Assembly (NCBI GenBank): GCA_036626195.1
Contig: JAZKSH010000001.1
Coordinates: 9,334 to 73,333, forward strand
Length of the DNA stretch: 64,000 nucleotides
Source: Thermoplasmatota archaeon
GTDB lineage: Archaea > Thermoplasmatota > Thermoplasmata > Halarchaeoplasmatales > Halarchaeoplasmataceae
Reading direction: 5' to 3'
Position numbers and translations under genes: made by a program. Position 1 is the stretch's first letter. Each line of letters starts with the position of its first letter. The notes under the pieces were generated by a model. The model was given only the letters and a program-made list of their open reading frames with translations. It was not told where the DNA came from and did not search any database. Positions 6,475 through 52,807 of the stretch are shown piece after piece.

Positions 6475-7203
6475 ATGGTTGAAGTACCCGAATCTCATCC
6501 TAGATATGAATCGTTAAAGACTAGGGAGTCGCTGGTGGAAGGGGTCGAGAAGGGGATAACATCCAAGGCCGGATTGATCGCTCACGGGCGTGGAGAGATG
6601 TTCGATTATCTGATCGGCGAGGAGACCGTCAAGCCGGCTGAAAAAGCTGAAAGAAAGGCCGTGGCTGAGATGCTGGAAGCAAAGAAGCCGGTCATCTCGG
6701 TTAACGGCAACGTTGCCGCGCTCGTCCCCGCAGGCATTGTTTCGCTCGCTCAAAGATTGGATGCAAAGCTGGAAGTCAATCTTTTTCATAGGACCGATGA
6801 GAGGATAAAAAAAATAGAAAAAGAACTGAAAGAAAACGGGGCGGAAAAAGTTTATGGAAAAAAGGCTGACGCTAAGATACCGGGGTTGGATCATGATAGA
6901 GCTCTGTGTGACAGGGAAGGGATTTTTTCAGCCGATGCAGTCTTCGTTCCTCTAGAGGACGGTGACAGAACTAAAGCCCTTAAGGATATGGGAAAAAAGA
7001 CCATAGCTATCGATCTGAATCCACTTTCTAGGACCGCTGAAACTGCGGATATAACCATAGTGGATAATATAATAAGGGGGGTTCCGAACATGATCGAGTG
7101 TGAACCTTTTTATGGCGATTTCGATAATGCTGAGAATCTAAGTTCAACCTTAGATCTTATGTGCAAAAGACTAGAATCTTTATCTGAGGAAGTGAGAACA
7201 TGA
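6475..7203 (+). CDS. Archaeal 4-phosphopantoate--beta-alanine ligase (phosphopantothenate synthetase, COG1701/DUF137)
   Basis: N-terminal HPRYESL...GLIAHGRGEMFDYLIGE matches the archaeal PPS family. It is divergent from pcm and overlaps ahcY. Confidence 0.65.
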   Translation: MVEVPESHPRYESLKTRESLVEGVEKGITSKAGLIAHGRGEMFDYLIGEETVKPAEKAERKAVAEMLEAKKPVISVNGNVAALVPAGIVSLAQRLDAKLEVNLFHRTDERIKKIEKELKENGAEKVYGKKADAKIPGLDHDRALCDREGIFSADAVFVPLEDGDRTKALKDMGKKTIAIDLNPLSRTAETADITIVDNIIRGVPNMIECEPFYGDFDNAENLSSTLDLMCKRLESLSEEVRT

Positions 7204-9101: not shown

Positions 9102-9635
9102 ATGAAAAGAGGTAAAGCATTTGTATCGACTTTTCTGCTGGCCCTTTTTACGTATCTGTTATTGACATTAGCTGCTGGCCAGTCCTTGGCACAGGAAGCT
9201 CCCTGGAGTCAGATAATTTGGAGTTTTGAAGAAATAGTGATCGGTATCTCGATGAGCTTGATAGCTGCTGCGGTAGCTGATCACATTCTCTGTAGGAAGG
9301 GAGATTTCAGGATGTTGAATCCTATCCGCTGGTTGATAATGTTGGTTTACACGATTCCGCTCTTCATAGAGATGGCAAAGGCGAACTTCGATGTTGCTTA
9401 CAGGGTCATAACGGGCAAGATAGAACCCGGGATTGTAAAGATAGACCCGGGCCTCGAAACGGACCTAGGGATAACCTTCCTGGCAAATTCGATAACCCTA
9501 ACTCCAGGAACTTTGACCGTGGACGTAGACGACGAAAGGAGCGAAATGTACATACACTGGATAAAAGTTGGGGAGGATCCAACTGAAAATATAGCTGGAA
9601 GATTCGTTAGATGGATAAGGAGGTTTGCAGAATGA
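9102..9635 (+). CDS. mbhA: Mbh/Mrp subunit MrpE-like (MbhA)
   Basis: MnhE-like membrane protein. It is the first gene of the 14-gene cluster. Confidence 0.65.
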   Translation: MKRGKAFVSTFLLALFTYLLLTLAAGQSLAQEAPWSQIIWSFEEIVIGISMSLIAAAVADHILCRKGDFRMLNPIRWLIMLVYTIPLFIEMAKANFDVAYRVITGKIEPGIVKIDPGLETDLGITFLANSITLTPGTLTVDVDDERSEMYIHWIKVGEDPTENIAGRFVRWIRRFAE

Positions 9636-17808: not shown

Positions 17809-17908
17809 ATCTATCGCAACATGATTGGGTATTTACAATTTTTGCGGGTGTAAATTTTCACTCGGTCAAAAACAGAAAAATATTTTAGAGGTCAGACAAT
17901 TTCTGCCG

Positions 17909-18832
17909 CAGATGGAAGAGGAACTAGAAAGAGCAGAGAGATTTCTAGAACTCGCTCCTGAGTCCGAAGTCGACGAATATGCGCTGGATAAATTGAAGAA
18001 TCGCATCTATAGGTGGAAAAATGCCGATGTAGAATATCTAGCGGACTTGGAGTATTTTATAAATGGGAAAAGGTATGACGACCTGTTGAATGCCTTCTCC
18101 GAAATAGAAGATCTAAAAAAAATTAAGATTAAATTTTTGAAGCCTAATGTAGACGGGGAATGGAATTTTTCTAAACCTACGAAGGAGGTAAAAGAAAAAG
18201 ATGGGAAGGGTGTATGTAAGACCTTCGACTACGATCCGAAATCTCTAGATAGCTGGATAGATGCTGAATATTCTAATTTTGAAAAAGTGATGATTAGAGC
18301 TTTTATATCAGACTTTTTTGTACCAATCTCCATCCAAAAAAAGTCAGAGTATCATCGCGCTGAAGAGGTACCTAGGCAGTATGATCCTCGATTGAAAAAA
18401 CTACAGGGATTATGGTCAGATATTAGGTCGGGAGTCCTCCCGTTATGCATCCGACTTTGTCTTTACACTAAAACCCAGAGATACCCGATCTTGATCGACC
18501 CCATGAATAACAAGGTTAAACCGCATCCTCTCAGTTTCATAACCATGGTGGATACTGTGGATAAGGAGCCATTGGAGTACATGAATTTCGATAAAGTTTT
18601 AGCTGCGATTGAATTTCCTAAGTTGGTAAAGAATATATTTGAGCTTTTGTTCATGACCGGTAGAACTTCGATATTCGATATAGCTGGACAGTTGAACATG
18701 GATCGAAACGTGGCTAAAAACAACATCAAGAGTCTAGAAAGTGAAGGTCTAGTAAAAAGGGAGAAAGACATATACTATAAGATAAATAAAGATAAACTGA
18801 AAAAGATGGCTGAAGATTTATCGGTTGATTGA
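17909..18832 (+). CDS. Hypothetical protein with a C-terminal winged-helix-like region
   Basis: The ORF is open from 17825 and Met 17909 is the likely start. The C-terminus IFDIAGQLNMDRNVAKNNIKSLESEGLVKRE looks wHTH-like. Confidence 0.35.
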   Translation, partial: QMEEELERAERFLELAPESEVDEYALDKLKNRIYRWKNADVEYLADLEYFINGKRYDDLLNAFSEIEDLKKIKIKFLKPNVDGEWNFSKPTKEVKEKDGKGVCKTFDYDPKSLDSWIDAEYSNFEKVMIRAFISDFFVPISIQKKSEYHRAEEVPRQYDPRLKKLQGLWSDIRSGVLPLCIRLCLYTKTQRYPILIDPMNNKVKPHPLSFITMVDTVDKEPLEYMNFDKVLAAIEFPKLVKNIFELLFMTGRTSIFDIAGQLNMDRNVAKNNIKSLESEGLVKREKDIYYKINKDKLKKMAEDLSVD

Positions 18833-18862: not shown

Positions 18863-19345
18863 TCAGGACTTTTCCTCTATCAGATCACCGATTGTTAGCC
18901 CATCCGATCCCTCAGACCTTTTGGTAGAAGTGCTTTCTATCTTTTCCATCAACTCGATATTCAACGTGTTTTCTAACTTATTTCTCAGATCATCACTCGG
19001 TCTCATATCGCTTCTCTCGAGTTTTGCGATGACGGACTTTTTCTCGTTTAACTTTTTAGCTAGCTCTTCCTGCGTGAAGTCCTTTTCTATCCTCCCGCGT
19101 TCTATCCTCTCAGAGTAATCTAGTGCAAGCTCTTTTTTATCTCCCTTGTCTAGACCGGTTGTTTGACCTGTCCTTTTCTTATCTTTTATCCTCTGTAGGA
19201 TTTCTTTTTGGGAGGAATCAGATTTATCGCCTGAAAATATCTCTTTTCCGTAGCTTTTACAGGATTCACACACTTCTATCTCAGAGTTATCTATACTTAC
19301 CGTTGTAGTGTGAGACGTTTCCTTGCCGCAGATCTCGCAGTTCAT
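18863..19345 (-). CDS. mbf1: Archaeal multiprotein bridging factor 1 (aMBF1)
   Basis: N-terminal zinc ribbon CEICG...CESC plus a C-terminal XRE-type HTH, TQEELAKKLNEKKSVIAKLE. Confidence 0.75.
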   Translation of the reverse strand: MNCEICGKETSHTTTVSIDNSEIEVCESCKSYGKEIFSGDKSDSSQKEILQRIKDKKRTGQTTGLDKGDKKELALDYSERIERGRIEKDFTQEELAKKLNEKKSVIAKLERSDMRPSDDLRNKLENTLNIELMEKIESTSTKRSEGSDGLTIGDLIEEKS

Positions 19346-19527
19346 ACAACACACCCGCAATTCTCGTACTTTTTCACTCGATTACTAAATCAGTCAAATG
19401 ATTTAAAGATTGCCTATCTTTTCTTATATTTTCCTATGATTTGATAATTTTCATTGAGAAAACTTTTATATCCCTACTCTAATTACAGGGACGATTAAGG
19501 TAGTCTGAAAATCGAGAATGATATGGC

Positions 19528-20163
19528 GTGATATTCATGGCTTCAGAAGATAAGTCTAAAGAAGATGCGGGAGATTGGTTCGACGAATTAGATGCCGAAT
19601 TAGAAGAGAAAACATCGGAAGTATTTAGAGACCTAGGAGAGCGGAATTCCAAGATGGCGGAGCTCAATCGACAATTCGTGAAGGACTTCTGGCGCATATG
19701 GATAAGGTTTGAAAAATTGAACGTGCATTTCAGCATGAAGCCTGATCACAGTTCTTTTGCTCGATTTAACGAATTCCCGGAAGATTGGGAGCTCAGAGAG
19801 GATTTTGACTTTTCCAACTTGAATAAAATTGAATTGATGGACAAGACCCAAGAAGACAACAGAACCGGAGATAGCATTGTACTCGAGTATTATTCTGAGG
19901 AGGACACTTTGAAGATAGGACTTTTCTTCGAATACTGCGAGGGGGAACAATATTACAAATACAGCGGTTGGAAGAGGATATTTGCAAGATACTCGCTTTT
20001 CGACGCCGAATTCCCCCTTGATGACGACAAGATGGACGAGTTCCATAATAAATTGAAGAGCGTCGTCAAAAGATGGTACGAATCACATCTGAAGCGGGAT
20101 AGAGACATAGTCCTCCAATATATCGAAGATGAGTTTGAGAAGATAGAGGAATATCCCGAGTAA
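19528..20163 (+). CDS. Hypothetical protein: a stand-alone copy of the C-terminal domain of the giant coiled-coil protein downstream
   Basis: About 50% identical to residues ~1545-1736 of ORF 20418..25628. Shared blocks are FPEDW, FDFS-L, LFFEYCE, RYSLF, KWYESHL. Confidence 0.55.
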   Translation: MIFMASEDKSKEDAGDWFDELDAELEEKTSEVFRDLGERNSKMAELNRQFVKDFWRIWIRFEKLNVHFSMKPDHSSFARFNEFPEDWELREDFDFSNLNKIELMDKTQEDNRTGDSIVLEYYSEEDTLKIGLFFEYCEGEQYYKYSGWKRIFARYSLFDAEFPLDDDKMDEFHNKLKSVVKRWYESHLKRDRDIVLQYIEDEFEKIEEYPE

Positions 20164-20417
20164 AAATACCTTTTTTCCACCTTATATTTAGTTGGCTTTG
20201 TTCATAGAATGCTACCTTTCATCAAGTAGAGTGATCGTTTTTAATCGAAAAATTTTATATCATGATGAAGGTATTATCAAAATAGATGAGACAAAAAGTC
20301 AACAGTCTTGAAGTTTTCACGCTTAGGAGGAGATTTAGAAGAACCTGTGTCGCTTCTAAAAATATACCAAGCTTTTGAAAAGTAATCATCCATAAAAAAC
20401 AGGATGCTAAGATAAAG

Positions 20418-23400
20418 ATGAGTGATGGAAAACAAAGTAAAGATGAATCAATCGACGAGTTAACCCAGATATCCGAGATAGAAGCCGAAAGAGCCAAAGA
20501 GCTCTGCGAAAATGGTTGTGAATCAATAGATGATCTCATAGACGAAGGGATTGAAGGACTGGTAGATAACTACCAATTTGAGGAAAAAAGGGCATCTGAA
20601 ATATTTAAAGAGGCTAAAGAACTGGAAAAAAAGAGGGTTGAGGAAGAGGAGGGAGGAGAAGTAGGTGAATTGCTAGATGAGATCGATGAGCTCGAGCAGT
20701 CCCTACCAGATTCGGATACCTCTGAAGAAGAAAAAGAATCTAGCGAAGAGAAAAAAGACGAAAAAGAAGGCAAGGGAGATCTGTCAACCCAGATCGAGGA
20801 ACTCGAGAAAGCACTTTCGGAGTCAGATATCGCGGAAGAATCGATAGAAAAAGAGATCGTAGAAAGAAAAAAAGAGAAAGAAAAATTGGAAAAGGAACTA
20901 GAAGAGTTGAAAAAAGAGAGAGACAAGGTCGAAGAAAGGGTTGAGGAATCTTCTGATCAGATATCTAGTCTAAAGGAGAAAAGAGATGAACTTGAAGGAG
21001 AAATAGATGACCTAGAAGAGAAAAAAGAAAAATTGGAAGAAGTCAAGGAAGAACTCAATGACATAGAGAAAGAGATCGACGAAAAGAAAGAGGAAAAAGA
21101 AAGTCTAGAGGAAGAACTCGAAAATTTGAAAGAGGAAAGAGAAGCTCTAGAAGAGAGGGAAAAAGAGTTAGAAAATTACGAAGAAGAATTGGAAGAGAAA
21201 AAGAAAAAAATTAGCGAAAAGGAAAAAGAACTAGAAGATAAAAAAAGTGAACTCGATGAACACGAAAGTGAACTTGAAGAACTAAAAAGCGAAAAAGAGG
21301 AGCTTGAAGATGAAATAGATGAACTGGAAACTACAAAAGATGACCTAGAAGAACTCGAAGAAGAAAAGGAAAATTTGGAAGACGAAATCGAAAGCCTGAA
21401 AGAAAGTAAGGAAAGATTGGCGGAAAAAGAAGACCAACTTGAAGAGTATGAAAATGAACTGGAGAAGAAAAAGGAAAAAATAAGCGAAAAAGAAAAAGAA
21501 CTAGATGACAAAAAAAACGAAATCGATGATTACGAAAGCGAGCTTGAAGAACTAAAAGATGAAAAACAACAGCTCGAAGATGACGTCAATCAATTCTCTG
21601 AGCAGATCTCCGACCTAGAAGACGAAAAAGAGGAGCTTGAAGATAAAATAGATGAACTGGAAACTACAAAAGATGATCTAGAAGAACTCGAAGAAGAGAA
21701 GGAAAATTTGGAAGACGAAATCGAAAGCCTGAAAGAAAGTAAGGAAAGACTGGCTGAAAAAGAAGATCAACTGGAAGAGTACGAAGGTAAATTAGAGGAG
21801 AAAAAAAGTGAACTTAATGAACTAAAAGAGGAAAAACAACAGCTCAAAGACGACGTCAACCAATTCCATGAGGAGATTTCTAAGCTGGAAGACGAAAAGG
21901 AAGAACTTGAAAAGGAGGTCAACGAAAGGAAAGAAGAAAAAGAAAGTTTGAAAGAAGAACTAGAAAGCAAGGAAGACCAAAAAGATAAGTTAGAACGTCA
22001 GGAAAAAAAATTGAAAGAATATAATCAGAAATTAAAAGATAAAAAGGAGAAAATAAGCGAAAAAGAAAAAGAACTGGAAGATAAAAAAAGCGAACTAGAG
22101 GAACACGAAAATGAACTACAAGAACTAAAAGAGGAAAAACAACAGCTCAAAGGCGAGATCAACCAATTTTCTGGACGGGTATCTGATCTGGAAGAGAAAA
22201 AAGAAGGACTTGAAGACAAAATAGAGGAACTAGAAAGGAAAAAAGAAGAGTTAGAAGGACTCGATGAGAAACTCCAGCAGATAGAAAAGAAGATCGATGA
22301 AAAAACAGAAGAGAAGAAAAACCTAGAAGAAGAATTAAAGGATCTGAAAGAGCAGAAAAAGAGATTAAAAGAACGGAAAAAAGAACTGGAAGAATATGAA
22401 GAAGAGTTGGAAGATAAAGAGGAAAAAATAAACGAAAAAGAAAAGGAACTAGAGGGGAAAAGAGAGAAGATCGAGCACCGAGTCGAAGAATTAGAGAAGA
22501 ATAAAACCAAACTTGAGAAGAAAAAAGAGCGACTAGAGGAAAAGAAGGAGGAACTGGATAAGAAAGAGGGTGAGTTAAAAAAGGAAGAAAAAAGGCTAGG
22601 ATCGTGGGAAGATGAGCTTGCAGATAAAAAAAAGAAGTTAGATGAAAAGGAAAAAAAACTAGGAGAGGAAAAAGAAAATCTTAAAGGAAAAGGAAACAGG
22701 CTAGATCTGTGGGAGGTCAAACTCGAAGGGTGGGAAAAGCAGTTGGAAGATAGGTTAGAAAAAATAAAGGAGAAAGAAGAAGAGATCGAAACTCGAGAGG
22801 AAACCCTCACATCAACAGAAGAGGAATTGGAAGAGAAAGATGGAAAACTTCAGGACAAGGAAAAAGAACTCCAGTCTAAAGAGGATTCTCTAGAGAACTT
22901 AAAGAAAAATCTGGAAGAAAAAGAAGAGAGGCTGGAAAAAAGGAAAGAATCCCTAGAAGAGTTAGAAGATGAACTTGAAGAAAAAGAGGATGACTTGGAG
23001 AATTTCGAGGAAAAACTTGAAAACAAGAAGAAAGAACAGGACATAAGAGAGGTGAAATTAGAAGGGTGGGAAAGCCAGCTGGAAGAAAGGGATAATAACC
23101 TATCGGAAAAAGCTGATGCCCTAGAGGGGGAAGAAGAAGAACTTGAAGAAACTAGAGTGCAGCTATCCCAAAAAGAAGAGGAACTTGATGAGTTAGAGAG
23201 TGAACTGAGAGATAAAGAAAAATCATTAGAGGATTTAGAAGAAGAGCTAGAAGAGCGGAAAGAAAGATTGGAAAATTACGATAAAGAGCTACAAGAGAAA
23301 GAGGGCGAATTGGAAGAACGGGAGGAACTATTGGACGAAAAAGAGGAAAAATTGGAAAACAAGGAGGATGAACTAGAAAATTGGGATGGAGAGCTGAAGG

Positions 23401-25628
23401 AGAAAAAAGAAAATCTAGATGAACTGAAAAACGAGCTGGACGAGAGAGAAAAAGAAATAGAAAGCGAGAATCAGAAACTCCAGGAGAGGGAAGAAGAGCT
23501 CGATAAATTAGAGGATGGGTTGGAGTCTAGAGAGGAGGAATTGAATAGCTTTGAAGAAGAGCTAGACGGGAGAGAAGAGGAATTAAAAACCTGGAAATCT
23601 GAACTGGAAGAGAGAGAAGGAAAGCAGGAAGAATTTGAAGAAGAATTAGAAAAACGGGAGAGACGGTTGATAGAACAGCAGAAAAATCTCGACCTCCAGG
23701 AAGTCAAATTGGAGGGATGGGAATCTACTCTAGATGAAAGAGAAAATTCCTTGGACCAAAGAGAAGCAGAGTTAAAGGAAAGAAAAAACGACCTTATCGA
23801 AACTAAAGATGAAGTCAACCAGAGAAAGAAAGAGCTGGATGAATATAGTGATGAACTAGAAGAAAAAGAGGAATCTTTGGAAGAATTTGAAGAGACATTG
23901 GGTGAACGTGAGAGAGAACTTGACGAGAGCCAAAAATCCATCGAAAAAAAGGAGTCTGAATTGAGCCAAAGGGAAGAGGAACTCGATGATTTGAAAGAAA
24001 AATTGGACACAAGGAGAGAAGATATTTCAGAAAAAGAAGATGAGTTACAAAGCTGGGAAAGCGAGCTGGAAGATAAGGAAGCCTCCCTAAAAGAAAAAGA
24101 AAGCAAATTAAATAGAAAAGAAAAAGAGATCGAAGAAGAAAAAAGCGTGCTTGATGAGCGGAAAGAGAAGTTGGAAGAAATAAAAGATGATCTAGATGGT
24201 CGAGAAAAGGAGTTGGACGAGGTCGAGAAAAAATTAGAGAAAAGGGACGGAGAATTGAGATCTTGGGAGGAAGAGTTAGAAGAAAGGGAAAAAATACTCG
24301 ATAAGGAGAGAAACGATCTTGAGGAAATGAGAGACGAATTGGAAAGAAAAGAAAAGAGACTACAGGATAAAGAGAACGAGGTCGACTTTAGAGAAGTTAA
24401 GGTCGAGGGTTGGGAACGGGAGATGGAACAGAGAGCGCAAAAACTCTCTGACAAATCAAAAAGTCTAGACGAAAGGGAAGAGATATTGGCCAAAACTAAA
24501 AATGACCTCGATAAAAGAGAGGAAGAACTTTTAGACCTTGAAGAAGAATTCAGAGAGAAGCAAAAGTCCTTAGAAGCCTTTGAAGAAAAACTTCAGAAGA
24601 ATGAAACCGAACTCGAGGATTATAGAAGCCGATTGGAAAGAAAAGAGGCTGAGATCAAGGAGAAGGATAGAAATCTAGATCAACGTGAGAAAGAGATCGA
24701 TTCCTGGAGAGAGGACTTGGAAGAAAGGGAAGAAAAAATAGAGGAAAAATCTGATGAACTGGATGAAAGGATGGAAAGCCTGAATAAAAAGGAAGATGAA
24801 TTGACAGAGATGAAGGAAGAGTTAGAAGAAAGAGAAAAGAGTTTAGAAGAGGAAAGAGAAAAAATAAGGAAAGACGGGGAAGAATTAGAAAAGGAAAAAA
24901 GCAGGATATCCGAGATGGAAGCGGATTTAGAATCTGAAAAGGAAAAGGTAGAAGAAAAGAAAGCCGAGCTAAAGAGGGAGGAAAAAGAACTCAAAGAGAG
25001 AAAACAAGAGGTTAAGATGAAAAAGGAGGAACTGCTCGAAGTCTCAGAAGATACGGAGGAGAAAGCGAAAAAGATCTGGGAGCATTTCCAGAATGATGAA
25101 AAAATAGACGTGAATATGAAGGAACTGAACAAACAGTTGATAAGAGACTTTATTAGGATATGGAGCAGGTTCCAAAAAGCCGATGCCCACATAGGGATGC
25201 ATCCTGAGCCGAGCTCTTTCGCTGAGTTCATCAGCTTCCCCGAGGATTGGAAGTTCAAAGACGAATTCGATTTCTCTAAATTGAAGATGATCAGGTTGAC
25301 CAAGAAAACCCAATATGAAAATGGAGCTGAAGATGGTTTAATTTTAGATTACCATCTTGACAGTGATAAAGATCTTGTTATGGAATTATTTTTCGAATAT
25401 TGTGAAGAGAACACATACTCACGATCTTGGGGATGGGGGCGAAGCGTGACTAGATATTCTCTGTTTTCTGAAAAGCTCCCCCTTGAAGACGATAGGATGG
25501 GGGTATTCCATGAAGAATTAAAGGATTTTGTTAAAAAATGGTACGAATCTCATCTGACAAAGCATAGGGATCTGATACTCGATTACGTAGAGGACGAATA
25601 CGAGAGGGTGGAAAGTCGCCTTGAGTAG
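20418..25628 (+). CDS. Giant (1736 aa) coiled-coil protein: HhH-like N-terminus, ~1450 aa E/K-rich repetitive coiled coil, conserved C-terminal globular domain
   Basis: A single uninterrupted ORF. The reverse-strand Ser-rich ORFs inside it are frame artefacts. 333-nt tandem repeat units and a recurring EVKLEGWE motif are present. Confidence 0.7.
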   Translation: MSDGKQSKDESIDELTQISEIEAERAKELCENGCESIDDLIDEGIEGLVDNYQFEEKRASEIFKEAKELEKKRVEEEEGGEVGELLDEIDELEQSLPDSDTSEEEKESSEEKKDEKEGKGDLSTQIEELEKALSESDIAEESIEKEIVERKKEKEKLEKELEELKKERDKVEERVEESSDQISSLKEKRDELEGEIDDLEEKKEKLEEVKEELNDIEKEIDEKKEEKESLEEELENLKEEREALEEREKELENYEEELEEKKKKISEKEKELEDKKSELDEHESELEELKSEKEELEDEIDELETTKDDLEELEEEKENLEDEIESLKESKERLAEKEDQLEEYENELEKKKEKISEKEKELDDKKNEIDDYESELEELKDEKQQLEDDVNQFSEQISDLEDEKEELEDKIDELETTKDDLEELEEEKENLEDEIESLKESKERLAEKEDQLEEYEGKLEEKKSELNELKEEKQQLKDDVNQFHEEISKLEDEKEELEKEVNERKEEKESLKEELESKEDQKDKLERQEKKLKEYNQKLKDKKEKISEKEKELEDKKSELEEHENELQELKEEKQQLKGEINQFSGRVSDLEEKKEGLEDKIEELERKKEELEGLDEKLQQIEKKIDEKTEEKKNLEEELKDLKEQKKRLKERKKELEEYEEELEDKEEKINEKEKELEGKREKIEHRVEELEKNKTKLEKKKERLEEKKEELDKKEGELKKEEKRLGSWEDELADKKKKLDEKEKKLGEEKENLKGKGNRLDLWEVKLEGWEKQLEDRLEKIKEKEEEIETREETLTSTEEELEEKDGKLQDKEKELQSKEDSLENLKKNLEEKEERLEKRKESLEELEDELEEKEDDLENFEEKLENKKKEQDIREVKLEGWESQLEERDNNLSEKADALEGEEEELEETRVQLSQKEEELDELESELRDKEKSLEDLEEELEERKERLENYDKELQEKEGELEEREELLDEKEEKLENKEDELENWDGELKEKKENLDELKNELDEREKEIESENQKLQEREEELDKLEDGLESREEELNSFEEELDGREEELKTWKSELEEREGKQEEFEEELEKRERRLIEQQKNLDLQEVKLEGWESTLDERENSLDQREAELKERKNDLIETKDEVNQRKKELDEYSDELEEKEESLEEFEETLGERERELDESQKSIEKKESELSQREEELDDLKEKLDTRREDISEKEDELQSWESELEDKEASLKEKESKLNRKEKEIEEEKSVLDERKEKLEEIKDDLDGREKELDEVEKKLEKRDGELRSWEEELEEREKILDKERNDLEEMRDELERKEKRLQDKENEVDFREVKVEGWEREMEQRAQKLSDKSKSLDEREEILAKTKNDLDKREEELLDLEEEFREKQKSLEAFEEKLQKNETELEDYRSRLERKEAEIKEKDRNLDQREKEIDSWREDLEEREEKIEEKSDELDERMESLNKKEDELTEMKEELEEREKSLEEEREKIRKDGEELEKEKSRISEMEADLESEKEKVEEKKAELKREEKELKERKQEVKMKKEELLEVSEDTEEKAKKIWEHFQNDEKIDVNMKELNKQLIRDFIRIWSRFQKADAHIGMHPEPSSFAEFISFPEDWKFKDEFDFSKLKMIRLTKKTQYENGAEDGLILDYHLDSDKDLVMELFFEYCEENTYSRSWGWGRSVTRYSLFSEKLPLEDDRMGVFHEELKDFVKKWYESHLTKHRDLILDYVEDEYERVESRLE

Positions 25629-25747: not shown

Positions 25748-27061
25748 ATGCAAGAAAAAGAAAAATTCGCGCCCCACATAGAAGATATAAACCGGGCGTT
25801 AAACGGAAAGTTGAGCGAAGATCAGATCGAAGAGGAACTCCGTACCTATACGGAAAGATACGGAGTGCCCTTGGGAAGTGCAAAAAGATCTATCGTCAAG
25901 AAGTACGAGGGAGATCCTCAGGAACTCTATGTCAGTACAGAGAAAGCTATAGAGGATATAGAGGGTAACGAACAGGGTCTTAACCTCAAATGCAGGATCG
26001 TCTCGATAAACGAGAAAGAGATCGAAGTCGACGAGGAACCGAAGCAGATATGGTACGGTATACTCGGAGACGAGACTGGGACAATCCCTTTCACGCTTTG
26101 GGAAGAACCGTCTATCGAACTGGATAAAGGAGATACTATTAAGATAGAGAACGGCTACGCTAACACATGGAACGAGAAACCGCAGGTGAACATCGGTTCC
26201 AAGGCGAGCATAAAGGAAATAGAAAGCGAAGAGGTACCAGATTTCGATAGAGAACCGCAGAAGCTGGATCTGAAAGATATCAGGGAGAACATGAGGAACC
26301 TCGATGTGACCGCGAGAGTAACGTCCATCGAGAAGAAGATAGTTAACGGTCAGGATGACGAGGAAAAAGAACTCTATTCTGGTATCATTGCGGACGAATC
26401 AGGAAAGGCACAGTTCAGCGCGTGGCACGACTTCGGTATAGAACAGGACGACGTGATCAGAGTTAAAGGCGGTTATGTAAGATCCTGGAGAGGTATACCT
26501 CAGTACAGCTTCGACGATAGTGCCGAAGTTGAGTTTTTAGATGACGACGAGTTACCCCCTTCCGAGGAGCTTGATGAGATTTCAGTTTACACCATCTCCG
26601 ACCTCGCTAAAAGAGGCGGGGCCGTAGACGCTATAGTTGACGCGGTAATGATCGATATAAAGAGCGGCAGCGGTCTCATATTTAGATGCCCCGAGTGTAG
26701 AAGAGTTATACAGAAAGGGGCATGCAGGGTACATGGAAAAGTCGACGGTGAACCGGATCTAAGGGTCAAAGGCATCCTGGATGACGGAACAGGCGCATTG
26801 ACGGTGGTAATCAATAAAGAATTGACGGAAGAAGTGCTCGGTTATGACCTTGAGGAAGCCATGGATGCAGCAAAAGACGCCATGAATCAAGAAGTGATCA
26901 GAGATGAAGTGGAAGAGAAGTTGATCGCTCAGCCGTTGCGAGTCAAAGGCAACATCACCAGCGATGACTACGGATTGATGCTGATAGCGGACGAAGTCGA
27001 CTACAAGAGTATAGACGTGGAAGAAGAAGCTAGAAAGATGTTAGATGAGGTGAGAGTATGA
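25748..27061 (+). CDS. rpa: Replication protein A (multi-OB-fold ssDNA-binding protein with zinc ribbon)
   Basis: Repeated OB-fold blocks and a CPECRRV...CRVHGK zinc ribbon. Confidence 0.8.
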   Translation: MQEKEKFAPHIEDINRALNGKLSEDQIEEELRTYTERYGVPLGSAKRSIVKKYEGDPQELYVSTEKAIEDIEGNEQGLNLKCRIVSINEKEIEVDEEPKQIWYGILGDETGTIPFTLWEEPSIELDKGDTIKIENGYANTWNEKPQVNIGSKASIKEIESEEVPDFDREPQKLDLKDIRENMRNLDVTARVTSIEKKIVNGQDDEEKELYSGIIADESGKAQFSAWHDFGIEQDDVIRVKGGYVRSWRGIPQYSFDDSAEVEFLDDDELPPSEELDEISVYTISDLAKRGGAVDAIVDAVMIDIKSGSGLIFRCPECRRVIQKGACRVHGKVDGEPDLRVKGILDDGTGALTVVINKELTEEVLGYDLEEAMDAAKDAMNQEVIRDEVEEKLIAQPLRVKGNITSDDYGLMLIADEVDYKSIDVEEEARKMLDEVRV

Positions 27062-27118: not shown

Positions 27119-28012
27119 ATGAGTATGATAAATAGAGAAGTAGCTTGGAGAGTGTTCGCTAGAGAGTTCAACGACTCTGACCTGATGTTAGAAGGGGACG
27201 AGGAAAGAGCCCCGAGCTACTTGGTAACGCCGTTAGGAGCCAAGATTAATCGGATATATCTAGTAGGTGTTTTGACAGAATGTGAAAACATAGGGACGGA
27301 GGAAGAACCCATGTGGCGAGCAAGGATTACCGATCCTACCGGAACTTTCTTCGTGTCGGCCGGTCAGTATCAACCCGGTGTAGCGACTGCCTTGGCAAAC
27401 ATGGAGCCTCCTCTTTTTGTGTCTGTGGTCGGAAAGGCCAGCACGTATCAACCTGACGAGGAGACTTTCCTGACCTCTATAAGGGCGGAGATGATCAAAG
27501 AAGTAGATGAGGAACAGCGTGATATCTGGATATTGGAAGCGGCGAGATCCTTAAAAGATAGACTAGAGATCGGCATAGAGGCTTCTAAGATGGAAGAGGT
27601 ATCCGTAGAAGAACTGGTCGATCTCGGTTTTGAAGAAAAATTGGCGGAAGGTTTCAAAAAGGCGTCGGAGCACTACGAATCATCCTCTTTTGAGAATTAC
27701 GAGCGGATGCTGGAGGATTCACTTAGATACGTTCTCCCAGAATACGAGAGTCAATCCATTGAAGATATAGAGAAGGAGGAGAAAGAAGACGAAGATAGAG
27801 ACGAGGAACTCGAAGAATTGATAATCGGCATCGTTTCAGACATCGAAGAAAAAGAGGATCTAGAAAACGGTGTGGAATACGAGAGGGTAAAAAGTGAAGT
27901 CATGGACGAGGAAGATATCAATCAGGATAAATTTGAAGAAGTAGTGAACGACCTGAGATCCGACGGAAGGCTCTACGAACCCGTTTTAGGGAACTTAAAA
28001 GTGATCGGGTAG
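27119..28012 (+). CDS. RPA-associated OB-fold protein (RPA32/RPAP-like)
   Basis: Single OB-fold N-terminal region with an acidic C-terminal tail, immediately downstream of rpa. Confidence 0.45.
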   Translation: MSMINREVAWRVFAREFNDSDLMLEGDEERAPSYLVTPLGAKINRIYLVGVLTECENIGTEEEPMWRARITDPTGTFFVSAGQYQPGVATALANMEPPLFVSVVGKASTYQPDEETFLTSIRAEMIKEVDEEQRDIWILEAARSLKDRLEIGIEASKMEEVSVEELVDLGFEEKLAEGFKKASEHYESSSFENYERMLEDSLRYVLPEYESQSIEDIEKEEKEDEDRDEELEELIIGIVSDIEEKEDLENGVEYERVKSEVMDEEDINQDKFEEVVNDLRSDGRLYEPVLGNLKVIG

Positions 28013-28017
28013 CCTCT

Positions 28018-28785
28018 TCAACTTTTTTCTTCTCCCTCTTCGTCCTTTTCATTTTCCTTCTGTTCGCTTATCGCCTCTTTCATCTTAAGGTCTCCCTCTA
28101 CAACTTTTTTGGCGAGATCCTTTGAGATGGTTATATCTCCACTCTCTATCCGGCTCCTTCTCTGCATCTCCCTCATCTCGCCTTCTGTCGCGTTGACATC
28201 ATAATCCCCTAAAGCCAATTCACCTTCACTGAGAGCGATCTTTTTAGCCGCCTCTATATCGGGAGAATCGGTCAGTTTTGTGGTGCCCTCTTCATTCACG
28301 ATCTCTATCCTCACCGCTAGCCCCTCTAGGGAATTTATAGTCCTGTTCCGGTTGGTTTTATCCCCGTGGCCTATCCTGATAGTCATCCTCTGGAAATCGT
28401 AACCCTCTATGAACCCTTCGACTTTCTTTCTCACCTCTTCAGGTGACTCCGCATGCAGGGTCTCTAGAACCTTCCCGTCACCTACGAGAGCTATCCCTGG
28501 TTGGGTTCCCGGATCGATGCCTACGATCATGCTTTGATATGATAATTTTCCCTTTATCATGGAAAGCGCTTTTCGAACACCTTTCCTTATATCGTCGTCA
28601 ACAGCTACTACATTCTGAAAATCTATCCCTTCGGCTTCATGCTCAGTGGTTAAGATAACCTCGACATTAGAGGGAACGGGATCGGAAGGGGATAAACTGA
28701 TAAACGGGATGTTCCTCTGTTTCAACTCCCTTACCATCTCGTAGTAGAATTCGAAATTCTCCGTCGCTATCGCTAGTATCTTCAC
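28018..28785 (-). CDS. RNase H-fold (YqgF/RuvC-like, DUF460-like) nuclease-domain protein, tentative
   Basis: The MIVGIDPGTQPGIALVGDGKV motif is typical of YqgF/RuvC-fold nucleases. Confidence 0.35.
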   Translation of the reverse strand: MKILAIATENFEFYYEMVRELKQRNIPFISLSPSDPVPSNVEVILTTEHEAEGIDFQNVVAVDDDIRKGVRKALSMIKGKLSYQSMIVGIDPGTQPGIALVGDGKVLETLHAESPEEVRKKVEGFIEGYDFQRMTIRIGHGDKTNRNRTINSLEGLAVRIEIVNEEGTTKLTDSPDIEAAKKIALSEGELALGDYDVNATEGEMREMQRRSRIESGDITISKDLAKKVVEGDLKMKEAISEQKENEKDEEGEEKS

Positions 28786-32634: not shown

Positions 32635-33804
32635 TCATATCATGGTCTCTATCTTTTTTTCGAGTTCCTCCGCTGTGATGTCAGAAAGAGATATCTTGGT
32701 CGTTCTTCCCGACCCGTCCGCAAATGTCCTAGTATTCAATATCCCTTCGTCGGAGAGGGACTGCAGATAGTTCCAAAATTGAGTGTGACCTAGTTTCTTA
32801 TTATCCTTTTCTTCACAAACCACCTTATATATCTCCTCTATATCACCCGTAGTGGTATAGGTGGTATTTTTTAAAGCTCTAGTCGCCGCAAGCAGTATCA
32901 TCTTCTCCTGTTCCTTGAGATCCCTCAGTTTCCTCTCGGTTATATGGGGATTGACTTCAGCTTTCGCCGACCTTACATCCTCCGTTGTGACCTCATTTTT
33001 CCCGTTCATCTCAGCGATCAGGCACGATTTCTCCAGCAGCTCTATCCCAAACCTAGCGTCTCCTCTTCCGTCTCCACCTTTGCCGGAAACGTCGGACAAA
33101 AGCCGTATCTTTTCCTCGTCTATCGAGCCGGGATGTAGTGCGATTTCGACCCTCTGTTGGAGTATCGGTAAGAGCTCTTCATTTGTGTACTTGGGAAACT
33201 TCACTCGATTGCTTCTTTTAAATGAACTTCTCGCGCTTTCCTCTAGAAGTTGAAATGCGTTCTTTTGGGATATGAGCAGGATAGATATATTTCCTGCAGG
33301 TTTTAACCTCTCTTCATCGAACCTCGAGAGCAAGTAGATCAGATCCGACCCGTTATTTTGGATGAGATAATCCACCTCGTCCAGTACGATGATAAGATGG
33401 AGATTTTTCTCCTCTATCTTTTTCTTTATGACCTCCATCATCTCCTCTGTAGAGAAGCCCCTATCCGGAAAGCCTTTATCGAAGTGATGGACAACTTTCC
33501 ACATCACTGAGCTGTCCTTTTTCCTTCTCCTGCAGTTCACGAAAACATAATCTATCGTTTTTCCTTTATCTTTAGCCCAATCTTCGAAATCCATACAAAA
33601 TCTTTTGGCGGTTGCTGTCTTTCCTGTGCCGACTGGGCCGTGAAGGAATACGTTCTGAGATACGTCCGAAGAAACGATCCCTCTGAACAAACCGAAGAGT
33701 TTCTGCATCTGGTCTTCTCTATTTGGAAGGTCTTCAGGTATATAGTCGAACGATAGTTTTTCTTGATCTTTGATTATCTTTCCAGTAGATCCTTCAAAGT
33801 TCAT
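32635..33804 (-). CDS. orc1: Orc1/Cdc6 replication initiator
   Basis: AAA+ Walker A LHGPVGTGKTATAKRF plus a C-terminal winged helix. Confidence 0.9.
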   Translation of the reverse strand: MNFEGSTGKIIKDQEKLSFDYIPEDLPNREDQMQKLFGLFRGIVSSDVSQNVFLHGPVGTGKTATAKRFCMDFEDWAKDKGKTIDYVFVNCRRRKKDSSVMWKVVHHFDKGFPDRGFSTEEMMEVIKKKIEEKNLHLIIVLDEVDYLIQNNGSDLIYLLSRFDEERLKPAGNISILLISQKNAFQLLEESARSSFKRSNRVKFPKYTNEELLPILQQRVEIALHPGSIDEEKIRLLSDVSGKGGDGRGDARFGIELLEKSCLIAEMNGKNEVTTEDVRSAKAEVNPHITERKLRDLKEQEKMILLAATRALKNTTYTTTGDIEEIYKVVCEEKDNKKLGHTQFWNYLQSLSDEGILNTRTFADGSGRTTKISLSDITAEELEKKIETMI

Positions 33805-33855: not shown

Positions 33856-34956
33856 TTATACCGTTAGATCGGCCTCACAGACTTCACAGGATTCCGCACC
33901 TTTATCGTTCATATGTTGACAGATAGGACACTCTATCTTATCTTTTTCCTCATCTCTCTCCTTATCTACATTTTCCTCCTCGATATCGTCTTTTTTGGAG
34001 TTGATGCTCTCTAGTCCTTCCTGGATATTTTTACTCAAGTCTTCTACCTCGCTCATGTCTCTCTCCTCTTCTTCTAATTCTCTTTCAGCCTTTATTTTTT
34101 CCTGTTCCATCTCTTCTTTAGAACGTGGTAAGACCGATTCCTTAATGGTTACGTGTTCTCCTGTACTTAGTGAACCCACATATTCCACACTACCTTTCAC
34201 GTCGACGCCGTCCGCTAGGGTTACGCTTCCTCCTGCAGAGATATCCATGACTTCTGAGCTCTTACCTATATCCAGTTCGGAATCACTCTCTAAGGCTCTC
34301 GCGCTGACTTCCTCTCCCATCTGAATTTTTTTAGCGCTTATCAATCCTTTAATCTCGCTGTTGTCCCCTATCTTCACTTCCCCTAGAGGGGATATCACAT
34401 CTCCATCTACTTCGGTGTTTGCTCCCAGCCTTATATCCCCACCGGCCTCCACAGATCCTCTTATCCTGACATTCTCTTCGCCTTCTATCATACCGCTGCA
34501 TTCTATGCTTCCAGAGACAACTGTATCGGGTGAAAGGGCGATGTCCGTACCAGATAATACCGGACCGTTGTTGGACCCTTCTCCTTTATTCTTCATCTTC
34601 CTCATCAGATTTTCGTTCTCCCGGTTCAGCTCTTCCACCTGTTTTTCTAACTCCTGATTTTCATTCTCCAACTCCTGGATTATCTTGTCTTTCCCCGGGT
34701 CCTCTTCTTTCTTTAACTCCTCTTCCATCTCTTCGATCCTTCTTTCTTTCTCCTCCAGCATCTTCTTCTTTTTGTCCTGTATTGCTCTATTCTCCCCTTC
34801 CAACTGCTCGATCTCCTCTTCAAGGCTCTCCTTCTCCTCCCTCAACCGACGTATCTGATCGCGATATTTCTTGAGCTTTGTACGGATATAATCTTTCTCA
34901 TCATCCATAATCTGCACTTCCACATTGATTTTTTTAAAGGTTTCTATAATATACAA
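33856..34956 (-). CDS. Bactofilin-like (beta-helical polymer domain) protein with N-terminal coiled coil and C-terminal zinc ribbon
   Basis: The central region carries hexapeptide-like repeats (VRIRGSVEAGGDIRLGANTEVDGDVISPLGEVKIGDNSEIKG...). The C-terminus is CPICQ...CEVC. Confidence 0.5.
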   Translation of the reverse strand: MYIIETFKKINVEVQIMDDEKDYIRTKLKKYRDQIRRLREEKESLEEEIEQLEGENRAIQDKKKKMLEEKERRIEEMEEELKKEEDPGKDKIIQELENENQELEKQVEELNRENENLMRKMKNKGEGSNNGPVLSGTDIALSPDTVVSGSIECSGMIEGEENVRIRGSVEAGGDIRLGANTEVDGDVISPLGEVKIGDNSEIKGLISAKKIQMGEEVSARALESDSELDIGKSSEVMDISAGGSVTLADGVDVKGSVEYVGSLSTGEHVTIKESVLPRSKEEMEQEKIKAERELEEEERDMSEVEDLSKNIQEGLESINSKKDDIEEENVDKERDEEKDKIECPICQHMNDKGAESCEVCEADLTV

Positions 34957-48351: not shown

Positions 48352-50298
<1,947 letters not shown>

Positions 50299-50299
50299 G

Positions 50300-52807
50300 G
50301 TGAGAGAGATGGAAGAATCTACAGAGGAAACTAAAATGGCGGACGAAGTCTACACCAAACATCTAGAAGAGGAGATGGAAGATTCTTACATCAATTATGC
50401 CATGAGCGTGATAGTAGGGAGGGCTTTACCCGACGTTAAGGATGGATTGAAACCCGTCCACAGGAGAATACTTTACTCGATGAAGCAGGAAGGTTTGTCT
50501 TCGGACAAATCCCATAAAAAGTCTGCAAGAGTGGTCGGTGACGTTCTCGGTAAGTACCATCCTCACGGCGATCAGGCCGTCTATGACGCTTTGGTTAGGA
50601 TGTCCCAGGACTTTTCTTTACGCTATCCTCTAGTCGATGGGCAGGGTAATTTCGGTTCGTTGGACGGCGACGAGCCCGCGGCGATGAGGTACACCGAGGC
50701 CCGCTTGGAGAAGATAGCCGAGGAGATGATGGAAGACCTTAAAAAAAATACTGTGGGGTTTAGGGATAACTATGACGGTACTTTAGAGGAACCTGAGGTT
50801 TTACCGGCGAAACTACCCAATCTATTGCTGAACGGCGCGAGCGGCATAGCGGTCGGGATGTCTACCAACATACCTCCTCATAATCTGAACGAACTCGTTG
50901 GTGCGATAAAGTTGCTTATCGATGAACCCGATGCCGAGATAGTAGATCTGATGGAGGAATTACCGGCACCGGACTTTCCCACCGGAGGCATAATCCATGG
51001 GTATAACGGGGTGTACAACGCTTACAAAGAAGGTAGAGGGAAGATAAAGATAAGAGCTAAAACTGAGATCAAAGATCTGGGAGGAAACCGAAGCAGAATA
51101 ATAATCACAGAGATGCCCTATCAGGTCAATAAAGCGAAACTGGTAGAGAGCATCGCAAAGCTGGTTAATGACGACGTGATAACCGAAATATCTAACCTAA
51201 GAGACGAGTCGGATAGAGAGGGAGTCAGAGTGGTGATCGACCTGAAAAGAGGGGTGATCCCTGATGTGGCGCTGAATAAACTGTTCAAGCACACCCAGAT
51301 GGAAGTCACTTTCGGCGTCATAAATCTCGCCCTGGTCGATGACGAGCCGAAGATTCTGGATTTGAAAGAGACTCTCCAGCACTATATCGACCACCGGATT
51401 GACGTGATAACCCGCAGAACAAAATACGATCTGGACAAGGCACAGGACAGGGCTCATATACTCGAGGGTTTGCTGACTGCTTTAGACAATCTGGATAAAG
51501 TGATAAAGATAATCCGTTCTTCGGAAGAGGATTCGGAAGCAAAGGGTAGGCTGACCTCGGAATTTTTATTGAGCGATAAACAAGCTGCCGCGATCCTTGA
51601 CATGCGGTTGAGAAGATTGACCGGGTTAGAAAGAAAAAAACTGCAGGACGAGTACGAGGAGATACAGGAGAAGATAGAGAATTACAAGGAGATACTCGGC
51701 GACGAGGAGAAGGTTCTCAACATAATAAAGGATGAGCTGGACGAACTTGTAGAGAAGTACGGCGACGAGAGAAGGACGGAGATAAACAGAGATGCGGTCG
51801 ATGTTGAAACCGAGGATCTCATCCCTGAAGAGGATCTAGTTATCACGCTTACCCATAAAGGGTATATCAAGAGATTACCTGTGGAAACTTACAGGAAACA
51901 GAGGAGAGGCGGAGTCGGTCTAATAGGTATGGATACCAAGGAAGAAGATCATGTAGTGGATCTCTTCATCTCAAATTCACACGATTACCTCCTGTTCTTT
52001 ACCAACAAGGGGAGAGTCTACTGGTTGAAGGCATATAAACTGCCGAAGGGAAGCAGGCGTTCCAAGGGTAGGCCTATCGTCAATATGCTGCCCCGGCTGG
52101 ACGATGACGAGAAGATAGAGGATCTGATACCGGTCAGCGACTTCTCCGAGGACAAGTATCTGCTGTTCTCGACCAAGAAAGGCAAGATAAAGAGGACCCA
52201 ACTCTCAGAATACAGTAATCCGAGAGTTACCGGGATCTGGGCGATCAAACTGCGTGAAGGAGACGAACTTGTAGATACGAAACTCTCCGACGGCTCTAAA
52301 GAGGTGATGCTGGCGACAAAGAACGGCCAGGCGATTAGATTCGATGAAGAAGATGTGAGAGCTACTGGCCGATACACCATGGGTGTGAAAGGTGCTCGAT
52401 TGGAAAAAAACGACAAGGTTGTCAGTATGACGCTGGTAGATGAGGACGACACTGTATTGACACTTACCGAAAAGGGATACGGCAAACGCTGTGATGTCGA
52501 GAACTACAGGAAGACTAACCGCGGAGCTAAAGGTGTCATAACGATGAATATCAGGGAGAGGAACGGTAAAGTGGTCTGCACGCGCAAAGTGGAAGAGGAG
52601 AAAGGTCAGGAGCTAATCTTGGTCAGCAAAGAAGGCATGATCATCAGGACTGTTGTAGACGATATAAGTAAACAGGGGAGGAACACAATGGGCGTAAAAG
52701 TGATGGAACTGAAAGAGGACGATAGATTGAATGCTATGTCCAAGGTGATCGGTGAAAAGGAAGAGAAGGAGATCATCGAAGGTGAAGAGGAAGAGGAGGA
52801 GGAGTGA
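50300..52807 (+). CDS. gyrA: DNA gyrase subunit A
   Basis: [26 protein letters not shown] active-site region with the catalytic Tyr. Beta-pinwheel repeats in the C-terminal domain. Confidence 0.95.

Follow-up and report, generated by a model that had tools for sequence, protein, structure and literature searches.

The two genes considered here are neighbours in a 64,000-nucleotide stretch of contig JAZKSH010000001.1 (assembly GCA_036626195.1, forward-strand positions 9,334 to 73,333), hereafter the window, from a salt-loving archaeon of the Thermoplasmatota (Thermoplasmata). The upstream gene encodes a small protein of 208 amino acids, and the downstream gene encodes a giant whose C-terminal domain, referred to as the head, is shared with the small protein and is borne on a long heptad rod preceded by a tandem helix-hairpin-helix, or (HhH)2, domain. 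Comparison with related loci indicates that the small protein represents a previously undescribed family restricted to Thermoplasmatota, and the giant would be a long coiled-coil tether or scaffold carrying this new domain family. The pair lies between the gene for aMBF1 and those for replication protein A (RPA), which binds single-stranded DNA (ssDNA) and has oligonucleotide/oligosaccharide-binding (OB) folds. The locus is arranged as follows.

19537..20163, + strand: small stand-alone protein gene, 208 amino acids (open reading frame, homologs, AlphaFold model)
20164..20417, + strand: intergenic spacer separating the small gene from the giant (direct sequence reading)
20418..25628, + strand: giant protein gene, 1736 amino acids (intact open reading frame)
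18863..19360, - strand: aMBF1 gene, the divergent upstream neighbour (TIGR00270, 130.8 bits; cutoff 110)
25748..27061, + strand: Rpa1-like ssDNA-binding protein (OB folds and a Cys-rich segment; PF01336, PF21473)
27119..28012, + strand: Rpa2-like partner gene (weak C-terminal winged-helix match to PF21120, 20.6 bits)

A preliminary description of this DNA, made from the sequence alone, had reported two open reading frames, 19528..20163 (+) and 20418..25628 (+), flanked by aMBF1 and the RPA genes; both frames are real, and the flanking genes were identified as named (TIGR00270 for aMBF1, OB-fold Rpa1 and Rpa2-like). The mechanical frame of the small gene opens at GTG 19528; because orthologs begin with MAS(E/K)D, the true start is placed at ATG 19537. 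The spacer contains an oligo-T tract just past the small-gene stop and TATA-like A/T boxes ahead of the giant, and the two genes are thus read as separate transcription units. Adjacency of aMBF1 to the small gene is kept in the halophilic clade, and the Rpa2-like gene always comes next after Rpa1 in the surveyed loci. The Rpa2-like gene is labelled by analogy with the Rpa1/Rpa2-like gene pairs described previously (PMC8329085).

The two copies of the head are located at the following positions.

19654..20148, + strand: head domain, stand-alone copy, residues ~40-204 (match to the C-terminus of the giant)
25116..25613, + strand: head domain, rod-borne copy, residues 1567-1732 (BLASTP and AlphaFold)

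BLASTP aligns residues 43-207 of the small protein with residues 1567-1732 of the giant at 84/166 identities (51%, E=3e-55), so that the initial estimate of about 50% identity holds over a stretch of ~166 rather than ~190 amino acids; all of the shared blocks listed at that stage, FPEDW, DFDFS/EFDFS, LFFEYCE, RYSLF, and (R/K)WYESHL..(D/H)RD, fall within this alignment. These are the only two head copies found by tblastn in the whole window. The AlphaFold model of the small protein (predicted local distance difference test score, pLDDT, 84.8; predicted template modelling score, pTM, 0.76) consists of a long helix (residues 8-61), seven strands, two further helices (163-186 and 190-199), and a final strand (201-207). 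Residues 1500-1736 of the giant (pLDDT 82.8) are predicted to have the same topology, and in this model the rod helix runs unbroken into the first helix of the head. Twelve positions are invariant in the family (N44, F58, P69, P81, D112, E135, Y139, G144, W145, W180, H184, and E204 in 208-residue numbering), all of which are present in both window copies, and a nearly invariant aromatic/basic hairpin, EGEHYYKYSGWKR, is found in the head domain of the family.

Sequence, profile, and structure comparisons yielded no assignment of the head to a named family, and the possibility, raised in the preliminary description, that it might map to a well-known one was not borne out; the head belongs to no described family. 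Its closest known systems include the two-layer alpha/beta sandwiches of the Med17 C-terminal domain, frataxin/CyaY, and PsiB, and no family-level structural or sequence similarity to frataxin/CyaY was found. A search of the Protein Data Bank (PDB) with the family profile gave no match, the Pyrococcus abyssi RPA chains included, and the small protein does not show the OB fold with C-terminal trimerisation helix of an Rpa3/RPA14-like RPA subunit. AROD, an acidic helical domain that binds the first OB fold (OB-1) of Rpa1 (PMC10122647), occurs as a stand-alone AROD/DUF2240 protein in some Thermoplasmata (Madru et al., PMC10122647). AROD/DUF2240 and Rpa3/RPA14 resemble the small protein in being encoded beside Rpa1/Rpa2 and in having an acidic and helical N-terminus. 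They differ in that neither the small protein nor its N-terminal 54 amino acids match DUF2240 at E<=10, and in that the model, with its single long helix and beta sandwich, resembles neither the three-helix bundle of AROD (~56 amino acids) nor an OB fold; identification of the small protein as a stand-alone AROD was therefore rejected.

The small protein is widespread in its phylum. A word-indexed search returned 183 homologs of ~203-208 amino acids, all annotated as hypothetical and all from Thermoplasmatota (Thermoplasmata, Methanomassiliicoccales, Saliniplasma, and Natronoplasma), and with more than 180 conserved orthologs the gene is no partial duplicate or pseudogene fragment, a possibility raised in the preliminary description. 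A pattern scan of 185,579 species-representative genomes identified 274 small-gene loci, 80 of which were retained for title and locus inspection; Thermoplasmatota is named in nearly all of the 80 titles. An exhaustive search of 1.84 billion representative sequences with the family profile yielded only 75 clusters at E<=1e-3, and uncovered a divergent subfamily of ~180 amino acids. The family alignment also defines an N-terminal motif.

19573..19605, + strand: DWFDELDAELE motif of the small protein (family alignment)

Within it, W14, F15, L18, E21, and L22 are nearly invariant, and the divergent subfamily keeps it as (D/E)W(F/I/L)xxLxxEL at its extreme N-terminus. The motif is absent from the giants, where the rod stands in its place. 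A possible echo of DWFDELDAELE in the rod Trp motifs, or in LLDEIDELEQSL after the HhH domain, was rejected, the motif hidden Markov model scoring at best 3.9 in giants against a maximum of 6.9 in shuffled sequences. Among distant members, P0181, P0184, and P0164 carry basic (K/R-rich) tails in place of the N-terminal DWF region, and two of these tails contain RRGRPP, which resembles an AT-hook core. Another divergent member, P0163 (185 amino acids; locus L090, 10001-10558), lies directly upstream of a conserved Pus10-L21e-RpoF(Rpb4)-DUF655 cluster, the last base of its gene being the first base of the Pus10 gene, and RPA is not adjacent; this context hints at a broader, possibly RNA-related association of the family.

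Linkage of the small gene to RPA could be judged in the 74 of the 80 species-level loci that carry enough downstream sequence. Rpa1 is found downstream on the same strand in 59/74, directly adjacent in 49 (gap of 100-243 nt), with one gene between in 5 and with the giant between in another 5. The same order is present in independently fetched contigs of Methanomassiliicoccales, Saliniplasma, and other Thermoplasmata. One lineage of Thermoplasmata that is not halophilic has, between the small gene and Rpa1, a gene that encodes 486 amino acids and matches no Pfam family (L004, 10616-12076, - strand; L005, 8479-9939, - strand).

The giant is far more restricted. In a tblastn survey of the fetched loci (numbered L001 onwards), a second head copy was found only in L010, L012, L013, L015, and L017, each with a giant ortholog of ~1850-2000 amino acids at the same locus, and in the truncated contigs L011, L014, and L016 an HhH-encoding frame comes next after the small gene. 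Loci with a giant or an HhH frame are exactly those whose small protein is at least 78% identical to that of the window. In a neighbour-joining tree of head domains, the giants form a single clade (100/100), which joins the small proteins of halophiles (100/100), and the branching of giant heads mirrors that of the small proteins of the same genomes. The small protein is thus the ancestral, phylum-wide form. Because the giant is clade-restricted and monophyletic, with mirrored branching and absences nested among its bearers, it is a tandem-duplicate derivative of the halophilic lineage, inherited vertically and lost in some branches. The head does occur both alone and on a stalk, as first described; the polarity is reversed, the stand-alone form being ancestral and the stalked form derived and confined to one clade. 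A wider co-occurrence of the head with long coiled coils, listed for checking at the same stage, was not observed: the exhaustive profile search of 1.84 billion representatives gave no other long fusion of the domain.

Two contigs labelled Candidatus Aenigmatarchaeota, L012 (JBKHKA010000005.1) and L028 (PWEA01000019.1), have small-gene/RPA loci of the Thermoplasmata type, with small proteins 90% and 71% identical to that of the window and, in L012, also a giant; both contigs are probably mis-binned. In the giant ortholog of the metagenome-assembled genome (MAG) GCA_003555395.1 (L001/L010), one in-frame TAA occurs at 6880-6882, where SELE*YLESEKEKV corresponds to SEMEADLESEKEKV in the window, and the ortholog was called as two genes of 1665 and 219 amino acids. 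A true split design was rejected, as a single in-frame TAA lies inside a continuous homologous frame; a sequencing error or a nonsense mutation of recent date probably accounts for the split, readthrough being a further option. The exact giant sequence is absent from a collection of 15 billion proteins in which both flanking genes (V5A88_00220 and V5A88_00230) are present, and the giant head, used as query against the word-indexed database, retrieved two fragments only; it was the genome contigs that yielded the giants. Protein-level surveys can easily overlook such giants. Searches of the literature on giant archaeal coiled coils and on these halophilic Thermoplasmata lineages turned up neither protein.

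The giant is divided into the following segments, in order from the N-terminus to the head.

20454..20621, + strand: (HhH)2 domain, residues 13-68 (PF14520 HHH_5)
20628..20837, + strand: acidic, S/G/P-containing linker, residues ~71-140 (no heptad register; Gly/Pro present)
20838..22253, + strand: rod N-half, residues ~141-612 (heptad analysis, ortholog lengths, internal repeats)
22254..25097, + strand: rod C-half, residues 613-1560 (~135 heptads in one unbroken register)
22713..22736, + strand: EVKLEGWE box 1, residues 766-773 (W772 conserved in 6/6 orthologs)
23049..23072, + strand: EVKLEGWE box 2, residues 878-885 (W884 conserved in 6/6)
23700..23723, + strand: EVKLEGWE box 3, residues 1095-1102 (W1101 conserved in 6/6)
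24393..24416, + strand: EVKVEGWE box 4, residues 1326-1333 (W1332 conserved in 5/6)

An E/K-rich rod and an N-terminal HhH segment had already been suspected from the bare sequence, and both hold up. The rod consists of 31% E, 16% K, and 12% L, its DNA repeats with a period of 21 nt (7 amino acids) according to Tandem Repeats Finder (TRF), and Fourier analysis gives peaks at 3.5 and 7.0 residues. Its two halves are of different character. In the N-half, both core positions are hydrophobic, the register shifts repeatedly, recent internal repeats occur at offsets of ~90, 111, and 281 amino acids, and the length ranges from ~470 to ~760 amino acids among orthologs. The C-half follows the consensus L-E-E-(K/R)-E-E-E; across the 133 heptads counted (residues 622-1547), position 0 is L/I/V/M/F in 129/133, and position 3, the second core position, is W/L/F/Y in 28/133, which take in all 11 Trp residues of the rod. 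The equivalent run spans 948/952/934/941/917/798 amino acids in six orthologs, and almost all indels between them are multiples of 7. In addition to the four boxes, W765, W1059, W1213, and W1283 are kept in 5/6 orthologs. No Pro, CxxC, or Walker A motif occurs in the rod of any ortholog, and the only Cys residues of the giant are at positions 30, 34, and 1662. At 0.1485 nm per residue, the rod would measure ~211 nm, with ~141 nm contributed by the C-half. Between the giant and its closest ortholog, L010, the ratio of nonsynonymous to synonymous substitution rates (dN/dS) is 0.08-0.11 in every segment; because dS (1.4-2.4) is near saturation, the evidence for purifying selection on the giant is only qualitative. 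The single-register heptads, multiple-of-7 indels, conserved Trp sites, dN/dS of ~0.1, and Pro-free rods together indicate that the rod is functional.

At the N-terminus, the isolated 81-residue segment matches HHH_5 (PF14520) with 27.3 bits, just over the cutoff of 27, compared with only 22.1 bits for the whole giant, and 7/7 orthologous N-termini match as well (best E=1.6e-9). A profile of these N-termini retrieves the (HhH)2 of Haloarcula L32e (4e-7) and the NusA C-terminal repeats (3e-6), along with Hel308 domain 5 and the N-terminal domain of Rad51/RadA. The giant has an HHH_5-type module in common with the L32e N-terminal extension, the NusA repeats, Hel308 domain 5, and the Rad51/RadA N-terminal domain; we know of no HhH protein in which this module stands in a rod-plus-head context.

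The reading that we tentatively prefer, and to which we give slightly less than an even chance, is that the giant is a tether or spacer with two distinct ends, built as a parallel coiled coil and working where DNA is replicated or repaired. The small gene was tandemly duplicated in one halophilic Thermoplasmata clade, and in the duplicate the short N-terminal helix was swapped for ~1,420 residues of heptad rod, preceded by the acidic linker and the (HhH)2 domain. The product may form a parallel, in-register coiled-coil homodimer of ~210 nm, with two (HhH)2 domains at one end and two heads at the opposite end, which would keep the partner of the head at a fixed distance from that of the (HhH)2 domain. 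The partner of the head would most likely be the small paralog, the head itself, or an RPA-associated partner, and that of the (HhH)2 domain a nucleic acid or, given the degenerate hairpins described below, a protein. An RPA-related or single-stranded nucleic-acid partner is a candidate because of the RPA linkage of the parent gene, the hairpin EGEHYYKYSGWKR, and the DNA-binding-like tails of distant members. The context as a whole, including the RPA linkage, the Orc1 and gyrase genes nearby, the HhH domain, and the AT-hook-like tails, points weakly to DNA metabolism. Of the tethering, cytoskeletal, or chromosome-organising roles proposed in the preliminary description, tethering suits a two-ended rod, and nothing found here bears on a cytoskeletal role.

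Several observations weigh against this reading. At the N-terminal end, the window hairpins read EIE (I-S-E-I-E-A) and QFE (Y-Q-F-E-E-K) in place of G-h-G, and orthologs retain at most one hairpin Gly, in the first hairpin, which 3/7 keep; DNA binding by the domain is uncertain because the hairpins do not carry the DNA-contacting glycines, and in this they resemble the NusA acidic repeats, which bind protein, more than they do canonical HhH motifs that bind DNA. The HhH end is not universal among giants either, since in L017 (2628-8345, ~1894 amino acids) an acidic N-terminal segment passes straight into the rod. As regards the rod, K/R occupies the second core position in 76/133 C-half heptads (57%), and this feature, combined with a net charge of -267 in the window rod, would be unusual for a stable dimer outside high salt. 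In salt-in halophiles, molar K+ screens charge, and the extreme acidity is compatible with such a host. The giant is missing from L019, L023, and L027, which are nested among giant-bearing genomes, and it is therefore accessory and dispensable. With respect to RPA, at least 100 nt separate the small gene from Rpa1 in every case and each window gene has its own TATA-like element, so co-transcription is unlikely, and the arrangement is probably a conserved adjacency rather than an operon. Of the 15 loci without downstream Rpa1, 14 are genuine exceptions, with heterogeneous and uninformative gene contexts, and one is the truncated giant contig L014; moreover, P0163 abuts Pus10-L21e-RpoF rather than RPA.

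If the giant were a cytoskeletal or filament scaffold of the intermediate filament, crescentin, or Scy/FilP type, its lateral or head-to-tail filaments would shape or stiffen cells independently of DNA. Such a role seems unlikely to us. Bacterial crescentin and Scy/FilP are likewise long heptad rods in prokaryotes, and the giant gives a weak match to Rod_CreS (PF19220), but at 24.4 bits this falls far under the threshold of 100 and can be put down to composition; the end domains are also different. Moreover, the giant does not show the segmented rod with conserved end motifs of intermediate filaments, its net charge of -267 disfavours lateral packing, a determinant of cell shape would hardly be expected to be absent from close genomes of one clade, as the giant is, its N-terminal module is an HhH domain, and its parent gene is RPA-linked. 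Another proposal makes the giant a scaffold for RPA or single-stranded nucleic acid: the hairpin EGEHYYKYSGWKR or the acidic DWF helix would contact RPA or single-stranded nucleic acid, and the giant would be a 140-nm ruler organising RPA-coated ssDNA, possibly with periodic acidic Trp boxes. It draws on the conserved adjacency of the parent gene to Rpa1/Rpa2, the near-invariant aromatic/basic hairpin, the invariant N-terminal acidic-aromatic helix, and the positional conservation of the Trp boxes, and the occurrence of the divergent subfamily beside RNA-handling genes would agree with a role in single-stranded nucleic-acid handling generally. The OB clefts of RPA usually take acidic-aromatic helices as ligands. 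The acidic helical domain AROD, which binds Rpa1 OB-1 (PMC10122647), offers a parallel. We regard this proposal as quite unlikely as it stands. The same holds for its boldest form, in our estimate a long shot, in which the head family would be a so far overlooked partner, in Thermoplasmatota, of archaeal RPA or more generally of single-stranded nucleic acid. The giant would then be a ~210-nm ruler whose heads, possibly together with the acidic Trp boxes, hold RPA-coated ssDNA at forks or repair sites, while its (HhH)2 end ties this to duplex DNA or to a landmark of the replisome or cell.

The remaining explanations concern the nature of the rod itself. It might be a single alpha-helix (SAH), that is, a monomeric salt-bridge-stabilised helix serving as a rigid spacer or spring, as its very high E+K+R content and its one strictly hydrophobic position per C-half heptad would allow. 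The continuous Leu seam (L/I/V at one heptad position, as counted above, in 129/133 heptads), the aromatics that recur at the second core position, and a low density of i,i+4 ion pairs (0.17 opposite-charge pairs per residue, under the 0.22 of like-charge pairs and the 0.7-1.0 of an idealised SAH) argue for a coiled coil instead and make this improbable. A fold-back of the SMC/Rad50 kind, in which an antiparallel intramolecular coiled coil joins the HhH domain and the head, would suit a protein encoded near replication genes in which globular N- and C-terminal ends flank a long coiled coil, and is still very improbable: neither an SMC_N/AAA match nor a hinge or CxxC zinc hook was found, and GxxxxGK[ST] is missing from all orthologs; the rod halves differ in kind (shifting versus unbroken register) and in length (~470 versus ~950 amino acids); the arms do not co-vary, the N-half spanning 470-760 amino acids across orthologs while the C-half is constant; and L facing K/R in antiparallel a-d' pairing would be unfavourable. 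Finally, low-complexity GAA/GAG-rich DNA, recent N-half internal repeats, one ortholog with an in-frame stop, and the absence of the giant from a large protein collection could suggest a non-functional repeat expansion, a pseudogene, or an assembly artefact. That explanation is scarcely credible in view of the intact 1736-residue frame here, frames of 1850-2000 amino acids in at least 4 other species-level genomes, heptad-preserving indels, positionally conserved Trp residues, and a dN/dS of ~0.1.

Under the preferred reading of a two-ended tether, the closest architectural and functional analogues of the giant are eukaryotic EEA1 and the golgins, which are long two-ended coiled-coil tethers and show no homology to it. 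The giant differs from them in its archaeal host, in its ends, (HhH)2 and a novel alpha/beta head, and in its unusual L-x-x-(K/R) heptad, with a 950-residue stretch unbroken in register; its parallel dimerisation is predicted. Few long-range structural proteins have been characterised in archaea, and the partners of archaeal RPA are only beginning to be mapped (PMC10122647, PMC11686378). The phylum-wide small family, encoded beside Rpa1/Rpa2 in most lineages, Methanomassiliicoccales included, is a credible new RPA-neighbourhood factor, and it would be experimentally tractable if cultured Methanomassiliicoccales carry the gene. The giant, confined to uncultured MAGs, with a function that we infer from sequence and context, can be viewed as a natural experiment in which a small protein was converted to a ~210-nm rod with a different second end module. 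Its rod could model coiled-coil stabilisation in salt-in halophiles and is a candidate molecular ruler, each Trp site lying at a set distance from the head. Should RPA or ssDNA prove to be bound by the head, no earlier archaeal case of a coiled-coil tether on replication or repair intermediates would be known, and if the ruler reading is true, it would be a chromosome-associated long-range tether of a kind not yet described in archaea.

In the wider neighbourhood, Orc1/Cdc6 (32635..33804) and GyrB/GyrA (48361..52807) lie within ~25 kb of the locus, and no ORB-like origin repeats were found in the 650-nt gap beside Orc1/Cdc6. Three Ser-rich minus-strand open reading frames within the giant (22025-22810, 23471-24493, and 24680-25303) are shadow frames rather than genes, produced because the coding strand is GAA/GAG/AAA-rich (GC and AT skews reaching 0.49 and 0.56). 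Convergent to Rpa2, a gene at 28018-28785 (- strand) encodes a protein of 255 amino acids with a weak DUF460 match only; it is syntenic across the whole halophilic clade at 63-94% identity and represents a conserved unknown in the RPA neighbourhood. Upstream of aMBF1, a 335-residue frame (17825-18832, + strand) belongs to no Pfam family and has a weak C-terminal winged helix-turn-helix (HTH) match (Csa3-like HTH, 33 bits against a cutoff of 60), and is a putative regulator. Beside Orc1/Cdc6, a gene at 33856-34956 (- strand) encodes a 366-residue protein in which a coiled coil at the N-terminus is combined with beta-helix repeats of bactofilin-like type (PF04519, 22.4 bits; cutoff 27.9) and, at the C-terminus, a CPIC...CEVC zinc ribbon. 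In L001 and L008, Cdc6 is likewise adjoined by a protein of comparable length (~340-350 amino acids), and the 366-residue protein is thus another candidate, besides the giant, for a polymer-forming protein close to replication genes.

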